A stretch of 60,299 nucleotides of DNA, the filler included. It is 6 parts of 6 records of this genome, joined end to end, with 100 filler letters (N's around TTAATTAATTAA, not from the genome) between each part and the next. Parts side by side here need not be neighbours in the genome. Positions count along the whole stretch, not along the records: positions 7,624 to 30,328 come from SRR31147125_51925; 5 more parts are not named here. One strand, given 5' to 3'. A program made the position numbers and the translations under genes. The notes below the pieces were generated by a model. The model did no database searches. It was not told the origin of the DNA and saw nothing but the letters and a program-made list of their open reading frames with translations. Of the stretch, positions 2,824 to 54,193 are shown piece after piece (the first letter of the stretch is position 1; each line of letters starts with the position of its first letter).

Positions 2824-4288
2824 TGTCCGTCCTCCCCGCCATAGCAGAGGCCGATAATTTTTCCAAGACCAAACGACTTCCGGCGCCCCGCTTCGTGATG
2901 GCTTCAATCGGCATGCCGGTTTCCCGAGCGATTATTTTGAGAATTTTATAGGTGCAGAAGCCTCCCTGGCAACGGCCCATGCCTGATCGCGTATAAAATT
3001 TGATACCATCAAGCGTGGTGTGGCCCTGGTGAATCGCCTCGACAATCTCCGCCTCGGAGACCGATTCACAGCGGCACACAATATGGCCGTATTGTGGGTT
3101 CTCCCCCACCAGAGCCTCAAGTTCCTCGGGCGATTTCTCCCGCACCCGCACCTTTTGGGAGATGGTGGGATCGTAGTCGGCCTTTTCGGTCAGGCTCAGG
3201 CCTGCCGTTTTAAGGAGGTCTTTTACATAGTCGCCAATCGCCGGTGAGGCGGTCAGCCCCGGACTCTGAATGCCGGCGGCTTGAATGAACTGCGGGGCTT
3301 TCTTGGAAATATCGATGAAGAAATCATTGCCCTCCATGACCGGGCGCAGGCCCACGAAGGAAGTAATGATTTCCCGTCGTGAGATGCCCGGCATCAAATG
3401 CATGGCTTGGGAGAAGACCGTGTCCAGATTTTCTTGGGTGGTGGCCTTATCTTCCTTGTCGTCAATCGCAGTTGCCGTTGGCCCTATCATCATGGTGCCT
3501 TCCACCGTGGGAATGACGAGCATGCCTTTGGTGTGTCGGCCGGGCACTGGGAAAATGACTTGATTGGGGAAGCCCGTGGCATTGCGTTCCAGCAAGAATT
3601 CCTCCCCTTTTCGTGGGGTGATTTCAAAGCTTTCGGCGGAGAAGGCTTTGGAAACCTCATCGGCGAATAAACCACCGGCATTGATCGCGTAACGGGCCTG
3701 CACCCTTTCACCACTGGCGGCGTGAATGGTGTGGACGCCGTCAGAAAAATCGGTCTTATCCACCTGGAAATCGGTTCTGAGATCCAGGCCGTTTTTTTTG
3801 GCCGATTCCACCAGCGCAAAGACATAGCGATAGGGCTCAACAATGCCACCGGTCGGGGCGTAAAGTGCGCCGACCACATCCGGGTTGAGTTTAGGCTCCA
3901 TCATCAGCAAGCGTTCCCGGCCACAGATTTCCAGGTTCGGCACGCCGTTGGCCACGCCCTGTTCATAGAGCTGCTCAACAGTCTTCATCTCTTCATAGGA
4001 GAAAGCCACGACCAGGATGCCCACCCGCTTGAAGGGGAAGTCCAGTTCATGATGCAACTGCTCGAACATCAGGTTGCCCTTGATTTCGAGCTTTGCTTTC
4101 AGTGAGGTGGCCGGGTGGTGAAAACCGGCATGCACAATGCCGGAGTTGGCTTTGGAAACGCCAAAACAGACATCCGCGCACTTCTCCAAGAGCACCACAT
4201 CCAGCGCATAGGCCGAGAGTCGCCGGGCGATGGAGGCGCCCGTTGCTCCTGCGCCAACAATGGCAACGTCATAAATCTTGTCAGACAT
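2816..4288 (-). CDS. FAD-dependent glycerol-3-phosphate dehydrogenase-like (GlpA/LhgO family) with C-terminal BFD-like [2Fe-2S] domain
   Basis: GAGATG, SKANSGIVHAG, GIQSPGLTASPAI, C-terminal CRCE...GMGRCQGGFC. Confidence 0.88.
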   Translation of the reverse strand: MSDKIYDVAIVGAGATGASIARRLSAYALDVVLLEKCADVCFGVSKANSGIVHAGFHHPATSLKAKLEIKGNLMFEQLHHELDFPFKRVGILVVAFSYEEMKTVEQLYEQGVANGVPNLEICGRERLLMMEPKLNPDVVGALYAPTGGIVEPYRYVFALVESAKKNGLDLRTDFQVDKTDFSDGVHTIHAASGERVQARYAINAGGLFADEVSKAFSAESFEITPRKGEEFLLERNATGFPNQVIFPVPGRHTKGMLVIPTVEGTMMIGPTATAIDDKEDKATTQENLDTVFSQAMHLMPGISRREIITSFVGLRPVMEGNDFFIDISKKAPQFIQAAGIQSPGLTASPAIGDYVKDLLKTAGLSLTEKADYDPTISQKVRVREKSPEELEALVGENPQYGHIVCRCESVSEAEIVEAIHQGHTTLDGIKFYTRSGMGRCQGGFCTYKILKIIARETGMPIEAITKRGAGSRLVLEKLSASAMAGRTDND

Positions 4289-4446
4289 GATCCTAGAAAT
4301 CCCTTACTTCGGTTGTGGCTCCTCTTACCCGATTTGGTGGCGGTGGAGGGCTTCACAGGATGGAACTCAAATTATTACGGCTGGCGAGGGATCGCCAGCC
4401 GTACCTGCAAAAGATATTCCTTCTTAGCTTGCTGCGCTAAGTGGCC

Positions 4447-5124
4447 TTATTGATTCGGGCCTTCAACAATCCAGGGATCATTGATGGGCTTATAGAGCAG
4501 CTCGACGGATTGCTTGTCGCCGATGATCCGGATCAACTGAACAACCTCATGAAAATCTTCACCTTCTCTAATCTTATAGGTCTCTTTCTCTTTGGTCTTG
4601 GGATCGAAGACTTCAAGAAAGGCGTAGAGTTCATTGTCGACATCCATAAAGCCCGTGACTTTCACCACAGGACGCGCCAACATGATATCCGCACGCTCGA
4701 CGAGACGCTTGTATTTCGTGTCGCCCGGCTTCATAGCAAGATAGAGATCCACGCCCGCTTTGACCAAATACCAGCGCTTGGTGTCGCGCGCCTTGCGCAC
4801 CAAGTCACTCACCTTGGAAGGCATTTTACTTAAGGCTTCGGTGGCATTCTCTTCTTGGTTGTGTTTCGTCTTGGTTCTGCGGTATTCATCCAAGGCGCTT
4901 TTCTTTGCGGTTTCAACCTGCACCTTGCTTACGCCCAAGGCCGCATTGTCCCCCATACTGATCAAGGGAGCAATGGCCTTGTTCAAACTCCGCACAATCT
5001 GATCCACGGTCAGCGGAATGGGTTCGGGCTTTTCCTCCTCAGGTGGTTTCTCCGGGGTACAGCCCAACAAGCCGCCGCACAGGGCGATAGTGAAGACTAA
5101 GCTAATTATGAGAATATTGCGCAT
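4447..5124 (-). CDS. Hypothetical lipoprotein
   Basis: Signal peptide with LLGC lipobox, Pro/Glu linker, 225-aa ORF with agagagga RBS. Confidence 0.7.
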   Translation of the reverse strand: MRNILIISLVFTIALCGGLLGCTPEKPPEEEKPEPIPLTVDQIVRSLNKAIAPLISMGDNAALGVSKVQVETAKKSALDEYRRTKTKHNQEENATEALSKMPSKVSDLVRKARDTKRWYLVKAGVDLYLAMKPGDTKYKRLVERADIMLARPVVKVTGFMDVDNELYAFLEVFDPKTKEKETYKIREGEDFHEVVQLIRIIGDKQSVELLYKPINDPWIVEGPNQ

Positions 5125-7523: not shown

Positions 7524-7623
7524 NNNNNNNNNNNNNNNNNNNNNNNNNNNNNNNNNNNNNNNNNNNNTTAATTAATTAANNNNNNNNNNNNNNNNNNNNN
7601 NNNNNNNNNNNNNNNNNNNNNNN
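7524..7623. other. Artificial contig spacer
   Basis: 100 nt: N-run, ttaattaattaa (stops in all frames), N-run. Confidence 0.98.
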
Positions 7624-8043
7624 AAGATCAATTTGCGGGATTACTACCCGTTTTATCAATATGACTGTGTTATCGAAGTTCCTGACGATGTTGCTGATGC
7701 ATTGCATGAATTGGACCGGTTTGAGGCCAACTATCGGCGTAGATTATACCGAAACAAAGCGTTTTATTCCCTGGACTGCAATGACGGCATTGAGCATGAC
7801 ATTCTTTTTATTTCACGCTCGCCATCTGAGATTTATGAGCGCAAAGTTACATACGGACAACTTCATGCTGCCATAGCATCTCTGCCGGACAAGCAGGCCA
7901 AGCGTATCTATGCCCATTATATTTTAGGCATGAGTAAGGCATCAATAGCCAAATCTGAAGGAATTAGCGATAAGGCAGTCCGAATTTCTATTGAAAAGGG
8001 ATTGAAGCATTTAGAAAGAATCTTAAAAAATATTTTGGACTAG
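7624..8043 (+). CDS. Sigma-70 region-4 type regulator typical of Firmicutes conjugative elements; start lost at contig edge
   Basis: KINLRDYYP N-terminus, YSLD..DG, LPDKQAKRIYAHY.LGMS.ASIA..EG.S.KAV..SI HTH. Confidence 0.85.
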   Translation, partial: KINLRDYYPFYQYDCVIEVPDDVADALHELDRFEANYRRRLYRNKAFYSLDCNDGIEHDILFISRSPSEIYERKVTYGQLHAAIASLPDKQAKRIYAHYILGMSKASIAKSEGISDKAVRISIEKGLKHLERILKNILD

Positions 8044-8104
8044 GGGGTCCGGTTTTGGCCCAAAAATGTCACGGTTATTGAGAGGGCTATTCAAAACTCT
8101 TTTT

Positions 8105-8550
8105 GCAACTTGAAAACTGAATATACAATATTGTAGGCACAAAACCCGCGTGACCGTAAGGTCAGCGAAATAAGGCGCGTCGCCAAGACGATGACTTTGA
8201 GGGGGGATCGATAAAAGCCATCTGAGCGATCAACGTATGCCTTAAACTCGATTTGGCAGATCGGGCGCGATGAAATCGCGGGGGATAATGAAACTTTCTC
8301 ACGACCTCCTAAAGACTTGGGGGGAACCCTGAGATATTCGCCAGTCTTACAAACGGCGGTATCACGGAGTTATGACAGCCTCGCCAGAGGCGGCCTGCAA
8401 TATTCCCATGTCGTTGGGGGCGCGTGGCAAATACGACGATAAAGTGATAATCAGTATGCTAAATGATATAGGACAGCCGCGCCATAATCTTACAAAAGTC
8501 TCATCGATAACGTATGGACATTGGTAGAATGAGCGCGGCTGTTTTCTTTA
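8105..8550 (+). ncRNA. Candidate large structured RNA (family unassigned)
   Basis: No ORF of 60 aa or more; about a dozen manually identified helices, including nested ones, ending in a 10-bp GC-rich stem plus U-tract. Confidence 0.6.
8473..8549 (+). terminator. Long hairpin, terminator-like, upstream of xis
   Basis: acagccgcgc (8473-8482) pairs with gcgcggctgt (8533-8542), followed by tttcttt. Confidence 0.55.
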
Positions 8551-8650
8551 TAACAACATTGCATCAGATAGCACAATACAATACAATTAATTTGTAGGAA
8601 TCAAACAGACGTGAGTGCTATCGGTGATTCTGCTTTGAAAGGAGGTCCCA

Positions 8651-8863
8651 ATGAACACTTCAGCAACAGATAACACTCAAACAGCCTCTGTGCTCACTCA
8701 GCGAACTTATAGGGTTGATGAGATAGCCAGTCTTTTAGGAATTGGCCGCACCTCAGCATATAACCTTGTAAAACAGGGGCTATTCAAGACAGTACGAATT
8801 GGTACATCCATACGAGTGTCAAAGAAGTCCTTTGACGAATGGTTGGACAGTCAAACCTGTTAA
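8651..8863 (+). CDS. xis: Excisionase (HTH_17 family)
   Basis: YRVDEIASLLGIGRTSAYNLV...VRIGTSIRVSKKSFDEWL; aaggagg RBS; directly upstream of the integrase. Confidence 0.9.
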   Translation: MNTSATDNTQTASVLTQRTYRVDEIASLLGIGRTSAYNLVKQGLFKTVRIGTSIRVSKKSFDEWLDSQTC

Positions 8864-8886
8864 ATCATTATTAAAGGAGAATAAGT

Positions 8887-10289
8887 ATGGCATCTATAAC
8901 AAAACGCAAATCCAAATATGCTGTCGTTTACAGCTACTATGATGAACACGGGGAAAAAAAGCAAAAATGGGAAACGTGGGGGACTTTGAAAGAAGCAAAA
9001 AAAGGAAAACAGAGATTGAGTACCAGCAAAGTAATAATACCTTTATCCCTCCGACAGTAAAAACGGTATCGGACTTGCTTTATGAGTTTGTACAAACCTA
9101 CGGTGTTAACAAATGGGCCTTGTCCACCTACACATCAAAAAAAGGGCTTATTGACAACTATGTAAATCCATATATCGGTGACTGGAACCTTGATGATGCA
9201 ACACCACGCGCGATGGACGAGTACTATAAAAAGCTGCTGACAGTCAAGGCGAAAACAGGTTTCCAACAGCCAGAAGCAGAAAAGACCATTTCGGCGCGTA
9301 ATATACGGGAAATACACAAAGTATTGCACTGTGCATTCAATCTGGCGGTTAAGTGGGAGTATATCTCCCGCAACCCCGTAGAAAATGCCACTCTCCCGAA
9401 GTCAGAATCAAAGAAGCGTGAAATCTGGACAGCGGAAACGCTCTTTCACGCGCTGGAGCTTTGTGAGGATGAACGATTGGCGTTGGCTATCAATCTGGCG
9501 TTTTCTTGTTCTTTAAGAATAGGTGAACTGACTGGCCTTACGTGGGACTGCGTAGACATATCCGAGCAAAGCATCTCCAATAATAACGCCTCAATTTACA
9601 TTGAGAAAGAGCTTTCCAGAGTCTCTAGGGATGCGATGAATATACTGGACAACCGGGACGTGATCCAAGTGTTTCCCGCAGTCCTTTCTTCACCGGCCAC
9701 AGCATTGGTGCTGAAAAAACCAAAAACGAAAACTAGTGTCCGACGCATTTGGCTACCGCCAACAGTGGCACAAATGCTTGTCCGGGCAAAGCAGATACAA
9801 AATGACTGGAAGGATATTTTGAGGAACGAATATCAGGACTATAATCTTGTGTTCACATTGTCCAACGGACGTCCCTGCGAGGAACGGGTTATTGTAAAAT
9901 CCTTTAAGAAGTTAATTAACGACAACAACTTGCCCGACGTAGTGTTCCACAGTCTGCGGCACACCAGTACGACTTACAAGCTGAAACTAACAGGTGGTGA
10001 TATGAAAGCGGTTCAGGGTGACACTGGTCACGCTCAGCTTAAAATGGTAGCGGATGTGTATTCACACATTATTGACGAAGATAGAAGAAATAATGCCATT
10101 TGCTTTGAGAAGGTGTTTTATCAAAAACACCAACCAAAGTTACCCGTAGAAGAACCAGCCACCCCAACAGAGCAGACACCAGCACCGGCCTCTGATACGA
10201 TCATTCAGATGCTTCAAAATTCTCCAGACCTTGCAAACCAATTGCTTAAGGCGTTAGGCAATTTGGCTGCAACACCGATTAGCAAATGA
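8887..10289 (+). CDS. int: Tyrosine recombinase/integrase with apparent -1 frameshift at the A7 run 8997-9003
   Basis: aaggag RBS and MASITKRK start at 8887; catalytic R (SLRIGE), K (PKTKTS), HSLRH, GH and Y (VYSH) intact in the -1 frame. Confidence 0.9.
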
Positions 10290-10527: not shown

Positions 10528-10603
10528 TGGCACCCCAGAGACGACTTGAACGTCCGACCCTTCGCTTAGGAGGCGAATGCTCTATCCACTGAGCTACTGG
10601 GGC
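10528..10603 (-). tRNA. tRNA-Arg(CCT), complete with CCA
   Basis: Reverse complement GCCCCAG-TAGCTCAGTGGATAGAGC-A-TTCGC CT CCT AA GCGAA...GTTCAAGTC..CTGGGGT-G-CCA folds as a cloverleaf. Confidence 0.95.
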
Positions 10604-30328: not shown

Positions 30329-30428
30329 NNNNNNNNNNNNNNNNNNNNNNNNNNNNNNNNNNNNNNNNNNNNTTAATTAATTAANNNNNNNNNNNNNNNN
30401 NNNNNNNNNNNNNNNNNNNNNNNNNNNN
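30329..30428. other. Artificial contig spacer
   Basis: N-ttaattaattaa-N. Confidence 0.98.
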
Positions 30429-37592: not shown

Positions 37593-37692
37593 NNNNNNNN
37601 NNNNNNNNNNNNNNNNNNNNNNNNNNNNNNNNNNNNTTAATTAATTAANNNNNNNNNNNNNNNNNNNNNNNNNNNNNNNNNNNNNNNNNNNN
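37593..37692. other. Artificial contig spacer
   Basis: N-ttaattaattaa-N. Confidence 0.98.
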
Positions 37693-44638: not shown

Positions 44639-44738
44639 NNNNNNNNNNNNNNNNNNNNNNNNNNNNNNNNNNNNNNNNNNNNTTAATTAATTAANNNNNN
44701 NNNNNNNNNNNNNNNNNNNNNNNNNNNNNNNNNNNNNN
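44639..44738. other. Artificial contig spacer
   Basis: N-ttaattaattaa-N. Confidence 0.98.
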
Positions 44739-54093: not shown

Positions 54094-54193
54094 NNNNNNN
54101 NNNNNNNNNNNNNNNNNNNNNNNNNNNNNNNNNNNNNTTAATTAATTAANNNNNNNNNNNNNNNNNNNNNNNNNNNNNNNNNNNNNNNNNNNN
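54094..54193. other. Artificial contig spacer
   Basis: N-ttaattaattaa-N. Confidence 0.98.

Follow-up and report, generated by a model that had tools for sequence, protein, structure and literature searches.

The closest described relative of the RNA considered here is canT of Tn916, a 452-bp region between orf8 and xis. According to the main text of Wirachman and Grossman (PLoS Genet 2024, PMC11658703), canT is essential for conjugation and for gene expression past the left-end terminator T1, whereas excision does not require it; it suffices in the absence of the other genes of Tn916, acts in cis, processively and in one orientation, heterologous terminators included, and its activity in a chromosomal reporter depends on the upstream promoter and on orientation. 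With canT, polymerase disregards terminators, and the transfer genes come on only once the element has excised. These authors found that folds of single sequences could not account for the activity of their fragments, of which those of 341 and 400 nt are active and one of 291 nt is inactive, and left the matter of structure there. Here we describe a 607-nt stretch (8044-8650) between a gene for a sigma-70 region-4 protein and the xis and int genes in an integrative conjugative element (ICE). It lies in a window of 60,299 nt, i.e. the whole stretch of DNA analysed, which consists of six contigs joined by runs of N around "ttaattaattaa" (7524-7623, 30329-30428, 37593-37692, 44639-44738 and 54094-54193), so that neighbourhood across the joins is meaningless. 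The core of the element, 8110-8437 on the + strand, is a conserved structured RNA, and we consider it probable that this RNA, carried by an ICE in tRNA-Arg, belongs as a divergent member to the canT family of cis-acting processive antiterminator RNAs.

Conservation of a non-coding RNA downstream of the sigma gene

The initial annotation of the window described about 600 nt without a long open reading frame (ORF) and with dense helices. The first part of this description is borne out: the 607 nt between the sigma-region-4 gene and xis hold no credible ORF, a long ORF is absent from 8044-8650, none of the five small ORFs tested there has a Pfam match at E<=0.01, and the ORFs of the sigma-to-xis region differ between loci and are not conserved. 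A decayed coding sequence, a possibility raised by the initial annotation itself, was rejected on these observations. The minimum free energy of the 607 nt is better than that of shuffled sequences on both strands (z -4.28 for + and -4.56 for -, 20 shuffles each); the comparison therefore supports a structured molecule, as had been supposed, but does not tell the strands apart. A scan of Rfam 15, suggested at the same time, gave no strong match: nothing was found in 7625-9000 at E<=1 or in 8105-8430 at E<=10.

The conservation is seen when the locus is compared with others. With the sigma protein of the window we retrieved 77 relatives among genome contigs, and analysed the DNA downstream of the gene by iterated nhmmer searches (E<=1e-3). 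The DNA directly 3' of the sigma stop codon is conserved in 56 of these 77 loci, over about 240 nt in most and about 480 nt in 14 of them. The remaining 21 show no conserved element at this threshold; they include L052, L053, L055, L057, L058, L060, L063 and L065 (L and G numbers are our handles for loci and genomes), in which the sigma protein is ~48-51% identical and a small ORF follows at once. The relatives were divided into subfamily A (the window, L037, the L026 group, the L066 group, L050 and L078), subfamily B (the L012 group, identical across four genera), subfamily C (the L048 group) and subfamily D (L004, L039 and L051). In all three checked of the new loci that are not of the Tn916 type (L101-L103), a sigma-region-4 gene ends 55-69 nt before the conserved box with which the RNA core begins. 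In A2, a MAFFT alignment of 42 sequences, invariant or near-invariant blocks comprise this box (TTGAMAAYTKMATA), CGCCAWGAC, GAGCGA, GCGATGA and AATGATACTT.

Of 401 genomes sampled from the class to which G004 (the Sporobacter chromosome described below) belongs, 24 contained an exact pattern of the box, 70-100 nt, GAGCGA, 50-75 nt and TGAYAC, at 27 places, and the reversed control pattern gave no match; since the window's own variant escapes the pattern, 24 of 401 is a lower bound. Clostridium tetanomorphum, Desnuesiella, Sporomusa ovata and Faecalicatena contorta (L012, L016, L017 and L021; also L014, L018, L019 and L022) have one and the same sequence over the 300 nt that follow the sigma gene, which indicates recent spread of one element across genera. 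In L012 the upstream ORF was read by eye as a candidate aminoglycoside nucleotidyltransferase. The sigma gene occurs on 33 Enterococcus plasmids; on the E. faecium plasmid NZ_CP032307.1 (L078, 102701-110897) a bacitracin-resistance operon is followed by the sigma gene, the RNA (4319-4719 of the locus) and an IS3 transposase, and this arrangement resembles what would be left of such an element after loss of its recombinase.

Secondary structure

Covariation was measured on A2 for a set of named pairs, i.e. the helix P1 plus four pairs of P7; the arms of P2, P5 and P8 are misaligned by MAFFT in A2, and the support for these helices comes from lists of arms made sequence by sequence. P1 is a 12-bp long-range helix between 8127-8138 (AATATTGTAGGC) and 8393-8404 (GCCTGCAATATT), whose arms covary. 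It is present in every subfamily with differing sequences (GGCGTTTCAGGT/GCCTGAAACGCC, GATAACCCGGATA/TGTCCGGGTTATC and GATATTTTGAGT/ACTCAAAATATC; in Tn916 AGTAATCGAATA/TGTTCGATTGCT). For the named pairs, 75.6% of cells are paired versus 63.8 +/- 1.0 in shuffles, and 96 cells carry changes on both sides versus 38.9 +/- 4.5, neither value being reached in 500 shuffles; the covariation score is 0.401 versus 0.212 in shuffled alignments and at most 0.171 with slid partners. The outer four columns of P1 score badly because MAFFT places a one-base gap in subfamily B. Its inner eight columns contain 48 G.U cells versus 8 A.C cells, which identifies the + strand as the folded one. The argument from G-U pairs that had been put forward for the + strand thus holds for P1, while P2 gives no strand call.

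P2, the second long-range helix, joins CCCGCG (8145-8150) to CGCGGG (8277-8282) and closes the 5' domain. Its arms read CCGTACG/CGTACGG in L066, CTTATGTG/CACATAAG in L078, TCAATCAAAAGG/TCTTTTGATTGG in subfamily B and ATGCGTGAG/CTCATGCGT in subfamily D; the Tn916-type arms CGATAAG/CTTATCG were read by eye in L079 and L082. Arms pair better, in longer helices, with their cognate partners than with those of other subfamilies (P1 9.45 vs 5.61, P2 7.45 vs 5.05) in a comparison that covered 20 of 22 representatives, the two Tn916-type sequences (L079 and L082) being missing because the motif pattern was too strict. For P2 this control is weak: the lowest cognate score is reached by 91% of the non-cognate pairs, in part because some arm sequences are common to different subfamilies, and for two C-type sequences the matches were of 4 bp only.

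The core begins with the box TTGAAAACTGAATA (8110-8123), which corresponds to columns 1-14 of A2, all invariant or nearly so. Within the 5' domain lie P3, a GNRA-capped hairpin TGACC-GTAA-GGTCA (8151-8164) that is variable and missing in some subfamilies (its counterparts are TGGCC-GGAA-GGCCA in L037 and GCC-GAAA-GGC in L078), and P4, GATGACTT...AAGCCATC (8190-8222, arms 8190-97/8215-22, with one A.C mismatch), just 5' of the near-invariant GAGCGA block (8224-8229). Counterparts of P4 have the arms CTATCTT/AAGATAG (Tn916), CTCTATT/AATAGAG, GCGGTA/TACCGC and AGCTT/AAGCT. P5, CTCGATT-UGGCA-GATCGGG (8247-8265), has the loop UGGCA or AGC among relatives and was found in all 22 representatives with about 10 distinct arm sequences, in L066 and L069 by eye, where the script chose another stem. 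The most conserved block, AUAAUGAAACUUUC (8285-8298), follows P2; its first ATA is the counterpart of the canT(S3) site of Tn916. Beyond it, subfamily A has a 3' domain of its own (8305-8371) composed of P6 (8305-09/8319-23), a composite P7 (8324-42/8355-71) and then AUGA. P6 and the composite P7 were added by RNAalifold, which found compensatory changes in 17 of the 53 pairs predicted in subfamily A; columns 275-276/299-300 of A2, in this domain, covary. P8, GCCTC-GCCA-GAGGC (8378-8391), stands just 5' of the P1 3' arm and varies to TGCGGC/GCCGCA, CGCGG/CCGCG, GGGCGGT/GCCGCCC and GCTTT/AAAGC. On the whole alignments of 42 to 45 sequences RNAalifold found P1 and short stems only, and a blind all-against-all scan of columns of the global alignment recovered part of P1 only.

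The core is flanked by further elements. The conserved leader between the sigma stop and the box (8044-8109) comprises a hairpin (8044-8061), which covaries between relatives (GGGG/CCCC vs CTGAGC/GCTCAG), and the block TCACGGTTATTGAGAGG; the fold of 8044-8110 is not better than that of shuffles (z +0.51). In the leader of subfamily C (L040, L044, L046, L027, L047 and L072) a palindrome CTTCGGGCC-N5-GGCCCGAAG is inserted between sigma stop and box; subfamilies B and C have it again beyond the small ORF that lies downstream of the RNA (L012 4062-4085, L048 4093-4116). On the 3' side, the P9 hairpin (~8405-8420) and the block GCGTGGCAAATACGAC (together 8405-8437) are limited to subfamily A. The block is duplicated ~170-235 nt downstream in L025, L030, L031, L049 and L101; the duplication comprises the hairpin together with the TGGCAAATNNGRC block from the 3' end of the subfamily-A RNAs, e.g. 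at 1704-1716 and 1939-1951 of L030. We considered GCGTGGCAAATACGAC as a repeated arm-type site and rejected it, as there are 4 matches at <=3 mismatches against 2.72 expected, one of them exact. A long-stem terminator-like hairpin followed by UUUUCUUUAU (8470-8554) has an energy of -35 kcal/mol (z -6.41, 200 shuffles), in agreement with the stem annotated earlier at 8473-8549; relatives also form a hairpin at this position, but lack the U-run. P1 is followed in subfamilies B and C by a long hairpin (L012 3765-3860, L048 3775-3875) whose 5' arm ATAGGAGG mimics a ribosome-binding site (RBS), ATAGGAGA, that belongs to the next small ORF (66 aa, no Pfam match), after which come DUF6870 and a large serine recombinase; this hairpin looks like a translational expression platform.

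About half of the helices of the initial annotation hold on a 12-sequence alignment of subfamily A and on the arm lists. The stems at 8247-65 (P5), 8339-58 and 8378-91 (P8) are kept, as are a core of 5 bp of that at 8305-24, without its tctc/gaga extension, and part of the ttccca/tggggg stem at 8405-20; the GNRA hairpin at 8151-64 exists, but in the window, L037 and L078 only. The others were wrong. The bases assigned to a stem 8135-39/8238-42 pair in P1 with 8393-97 instead, the stems at 8178-90 and 8206-31 are superseded by P4, the 3' arm of that at 8266-80 belongs to P2, the enclosing helix 8360-65/8444-49 does not hold, and the stem at 8567-8622, folded as part of 8560-8650, is no better than shuffles (z -1.11). 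Both long-range helices, P1 and P2, had been missed. Covariation among homologs, on which the proposal was made to depend, is found for P1 and P7 on A2 and as compensated arm variants in P2, P4, P5 and P8, and the central claim, a large structured + strand RNA in a regulatory module between the sigma-region-4 gene and xis-int of an ICE, stands.

Homology to the canT region of Tn916

Sequences of the Tn916 type were sought with Tn916-Xis (PF09035) in 401 genomes of the class of G001. Eleven genomes matched, 7 of them above the cut-off, and six loci (L079-L084) score 69-70 bits; the domain is absent from four genomes of the relatives' loci and from 14 control genomes. The plasmid collection, searched at the DNA and protein levels, yielded Enterococcus plasmid remnants and three others only, and no Tn916. 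Profiles of the window family match all six Tn916-Xis loci (E ~7e-17 and ~5e-16), 170-360 nt upstream of xis. In the opposite direction, a profile of 13 sequences of subfamilies B, C, D and the Tn916 type, with subfamily A excluded, matches 8110-8298 with E 8.5e-6, and this is its sole match in the 60-kb window. Judged from these comparisons, the homology of the window RNA to the canT region is real but distant, its basis being the 5' domain together with the P1/P2 architecture that both have.

L082 has the layout of Tn916: orf7 (143 aa, sigma region 4), orf8 (76 aa, HTH_16), xis (67 aa) and a 405-aa int, with an antisense 83-codon orf5 overlapping the xis start; orf5 of Tn916 is described as having 83 codons and a start inside xis (PMC11658703). 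We placed on L082 the coordinates given in the main text of the canT paper, counted from the orf8 stop codon. The start of the active fragment (+126) is the first T of the box (L082 1154), and the inactivating substitution S3 (ATA to TGC, +283) hits the ATA of GATAATGATAC, within the most conserved block AUAAUGAUAC. The 162-bp deletion (+229 to +390) takes out P5, the P2 3' arm and the 3' domain, and the counterpart of the window's leader falls outside the active fragment. The ATA of the S3 site is kept at 8285-8287 of the window; in subfamilies B and C the triplet reads ACA or is absent. Common to the window and the Tn916-type sequences are P1, P2, P4, P5 and P8, a scaffold defined in the present analysis. 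The initial annotation, which could assign the RNA to no named family, therefore needs correction: it is assignable to canT, which partly overlaps the Rfam family pemK. The precedent it cited, RNA-based processive antitermination, is indeed the activity of the studied homologue.

The pemK motif is reportedly from Weinberg et al. 2017. In Rfam it is RF02913, of type Cis-reg, and it matches inside the RNA of relatives at L082 1311-1411 (49.9 bits), L012 3649-3727 (56.1), L048 3621-3737 (41.3) and L004 907-1005 (59.7), the cut-off being 34.8 bits. The model starts at AUAAUGAUACUU, i.e. the S3 triplet, and its three hairpins closed by one pair correspond to the 3' domain; with 61 positions it covers about one fifth of the RNA, and P1, P2 and the whole 5' domain lie outside it. 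The window retains the opening AUAAUGAnACUU of the model (in the block AUAAUGAAACUUUC) and its closing AUGA, but between them it has two different hairpins in place of the three in the model, and it lacks GGUGAAAUUCC. The word pemK does not occur in the main text of Weinberg 2017, whose supplements were outside the search, and the main text of the canT paper (PMC11658703), again with supplementary figures outside the search, mentions neither pemK nor Rfam. The papers listed by literature searches on the motif are mostly on methods or databases, and, judged by title and opening of the abstract, none of those listed deals with antitermination or conjugative elements; no paper linking pemK to canT was found in the searches made.

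Upstream of the sigma gene, another Rfam family, SQ2397 (RF03532, "cis-regulator of HTH transcription factor"), gives sub-threshold matches at L082 1-91 (63.7 bits) and L048 2381-2621 (58.8 bits; cut-off 100), so that the regulatory module may include another RNA element here.

Locus and host element

In the window the Orf7-like sigma-70 region-4 gene (7633-8043, PF08281 E 2.4e-9) lacks its first codons because of the contig join at 7524-7623; a full-length version is found at L097 18140-18568. The sigma-region-4 proteins have weak, sub-threshold Phage_antitermQ (PF06530) matches over their helix-turn-helix part (window 7633-8043 E 4.5e-5, L101 1738-2241 E 8.9e-5). Downstream of the RNA come an xis-like HTH_17 gene (8651-8863, PF12728 E 6.5e-14) and a tyrosine integrase (8887-10289) whose frame is split at an A-run near 8996 (8887-9060 plus 8967-10289). 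The sigma-region-4 gene, RNA, xis and int are all on the + strand, and no orf8 homologue is present. A tRNA-Arg(CCT) gene on the - strand (10528-10603) is the attachment site on the attR side, and its 3' part is repeated at the far end of the element in G004.

The left end lies outside the window, and we therefore used G004, a Sporobacter chromosome (a metagenome-assembled genome) whose locus L001 encodes a sigma protein 99% identical to that of the window. Between G004 and window positions 7624-8474 the match is 99.9% (1 difference in 852 positions), and across RNA, xis and int the two are identical save two homopolymer lengths and one substitution. The homopolymers are the A-run in the integrase, which is a single 467-aa frame in L001, and a G-run at 8200 in the P4 loop; the differences may reflect real decay or homopolymer sequencing errors. 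In G004 the element is a 78.6-kb ICE at tRNA-Arg with its attL repeat 78.6 kb upstream. Upstream of the tRNA gene its 3' part has three further copies, at distances of 78.6, 100 and 138 kb (G004:C1 2352380-2490099, L090-L094), and these indicate that elements are integrated there in a tandem array; the C-terminus of an integrase is found immediately to the left of the nearest repeat. The same chromosome carries a second sigma-plus-RNA module, of subfamily C (L047, OY776214.1 2020904-2027308), so that one genome holds two types.

About 255 nt inside the left end of the G004 element there is a + strand terminator, a 12-bp stem followed by TTTTACATAA (L096 747-775), before the first gene (Fic, 871); two further terminators lie at 1727-1756 and 3500-3521. 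In the 18 kb of the left end, 23 of 24 called ORFs are on the + strand, as is the RNA, and among those scanned are ParA, ParB, RepA_N, a T2SSE ATPase and a coupling protein; the relaxase and a NikA-like gene follow further right, also on the + strand. In this near-identical element an insulating terminator thus stands at the end opposite to the RNA, before co-oriented transfer genes. A transcript running after excision through RNA, xis and int would therefore encounter first the left-end terminator and next the transfer genes, which is the arrangement of Tn916.

Predicted function and alternative explanations

By analogy with canT we infer that the window RNA has antitermination activity, acts in cis and contacts RNA polymerase. 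Transcription starting upstream of the Orf7-like sigma-region-4 gene would copy the RNA, and the nascent RNA would fold into a body of several helices, ~280 nt long and with P1 and P2 as its closing stems, stay with its own polymerase and render it resistant to intrinsic terminators. In the integrated state the transcript would pass xis-int into the chromosome without further effect. Excision would produce a circle in which int is joined to the left end, and the modified polymerase would then read through the insulating left-end terminator into the replication, partition and transfer genes. The RNA would more likely be part of a long operon transcript than the discrete molecule of ~430-450 nt envisaged in the initial annotation. 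Likewise, a ribonucleoprotein with the sigma-like protein and the gating of excision, which it also proposed, are not favoured, as canT needs no other element gene and its loss left excision unlowered.

Several observations weigh against this assignment. A single Tn916 sequence finds nothing in the window, so that the link to Tn916 is made by profiles only, and the pairwise identity of the two in A2 is 40% (107 of 265). The window falls short of the 34.8-bit membership cut-off of pemK and gives no match even at E<=10 (8105-8430); GAAAC replaces GAUAC and the 3' domain is remodelled, and its activity could therefore differ from that of Tn916 canT. The long-stem terminator at 8470-8554 separates the RNA from xis and could halt a polymerase even if it has been modified; on pLS20, 15-bp terminator stems are described as resisting its conAn antitermination system, which is different from canT. 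A search for sequencing runs listed 17, none of them recorded as RNA. The left end and its terminator are known from the genome of a relative, G004, and not from the window, and the number of left-end terminators is not above that in shuffles overall (8 vs 6.2 +/- 2.4). Finally, the split integrase frame near 8996 may mean that the window copy is immobile, or may be a homopolymer sequencing error.

The long-stem terminator directly downstream of the RNA also suggests another function: the RNA could be a local cis-regulatory leader, similar to an attenuator or riboswitch and perhaps responsive to a factor, which decides on passage of 8470-8554 into xis-int and is not processive. The resemblance of the post-P1 hairpin of subfamilies B and C, with its RBS mimic beside the RBS of the next small ORF, to an expression platform agrees with this idea, and so does the Rfam type of pemK; yet the U-run is not conserved in relatives, no alternative pairing between core and terminator was found, and the Tn916 homologue is processive on unrelated terminators (PMC11658703), and we regard a purely local role as unlikely. 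Somewhat less probable still is a partnership with the adjacent sigma-region-4 protein, either in a ribonucleoprotein or as a Q-like protein loaded with the help of the RNA, the two jointly modifying polymerase. The constant linkage of the RNA to the gene, the sub-threshold Phage_antitermQ matches of the protein and the use of protein plus RNA by pLS20 speak for it; canT, however, is active in a reporter without other Tn916 genes (PMC11658703), and the sigma proteins of window and Tn916 share only 37% identity over 30 region-4 residues, while the RNA core is conserved.

Two further explanations would deny a role to the RNA as such. ICEs go through a single-stranded stage, covariation alone cannot separate single-stranded DNA from RNA (a point made also in Weinberg 2017) and G.T pairs are tolerated in DNA, so the conserved structure might be a single-strand origin or another element of rolling-circle transfer. 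We hold this to be very improbable, given that canT acts from a chromosomal reporter without transfer functions, dependent on promoter and orientation (PMC11658703), and that the element lies inside an operon and is co-oriented with it. The least probable explanation is a conserved DNA control region with a promoter, operators or Int/Xis arm sites, in which the folded strand has no role. It would account for the likeness of the box TTGACAACTGAATA to a -35 element and for promoter-like sites at 8102-8129 and 8424-8451 in a scan; but the helices keep pairing despite complete change of sequence, unlike DNA-binding sites, and the alignments contain no conserved -10 after the box. The TTGACA box as a promoter was rejected, since in addition to the missing -10 the published fragment works from a foreign promoter (PMC11658703).

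A broader and admittedly doubtful generalization may be offered: canT-type RNAs could form one large polymerase-modifying class built on the P1/P2 scaffold with an invariant 5' domain, present in at least 6% of sampled Clostridia species. pemK would be the 3' sub-domain of most of its members, and the window's subfamily would have swapped it and acquired, in P9, the GYGUGGCAAAUWCGRC block and the long-stem terminator, an additional 3' module that makes antitermination conditional. The 3' module would then be a checkpoint passable only by a correctly modified polymerase, or by one aided by an element or host factor, e.g. the neighbouring sigma-region-4 protein.

canT is known genetically in one element, and the family described here supplies a scaffold supported by covariation (P1, P2, P4, P5, P8 and the invariant blocks). 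This scaffold explains two observations on canT, namely that the active fragment starts at the conserved box and that S3 lies at the junction after P2, and it connects pemK, an orphan motif of Rfam, with a function. The window variant shows which parts are dispensable or exchangeable, which is useful for the design of a minimal antiterminator and for the search for polymerase contacts, and the family marks the breadth of the scheme of insulating terminator plus RNA antiterminator among ICEs of Clostridia.

Comparison with known antitermination systems

RNA-only processive antiterminators are known in smaller forms: the put and EAR RNAs are much smaller than the window RNA, with ~70 and ~120 nt, and each has an Rfam family. 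No Rfam family matches the window in the two scans given above. Like the RNA described here, the put RNAs (phage HK022) and EAR (eps operon of B. subtilis) are RNA-only, cis-acting and processive (cited in PMC11658703). The conAn system of pLS20, composed of conAn2 RNA and the ConAn1 protein (Miguel-Arribas et al., NAR 2021, PMC8191782), likewise provides processive antitermination in a Gram-positive conjugation operon; it differs in having two components, protein plus RNA, in its position at the operon start and in its location on a plasmid, and we liken the two by description only.

With canT the likeness goes much further. Both RNAs occupy the same place at the right end of the element, after an orf7-type sigma gene and before xis and int (or another recombinase in relatives), on the same strand; they have in common the box, P1, P2, P4, P5, P8 and the GAGCGA and AUAAUGAUAC blocks, have a similar span of ~280 nt between the box and the point where P1 ends, and share the layout with a terminator at the left end. 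Unlike Tn916, the window has no orf8 between sigma gene and RNA, its 3' domain is built otherwise and escapes the pemK model, P9, the GCGTGGCAAATACGAC block and the long-stem terminator form an extra 3' module, and the ICE has a different backbone with ParAB, RepA_N, a tRNA-Arg site and a length of 78.6 kb. The window RNA is probably a divergent member of the canT family, of a kind already known; what is new, within the searches made, is this variant, together with the scaffold and the connection with pemK.

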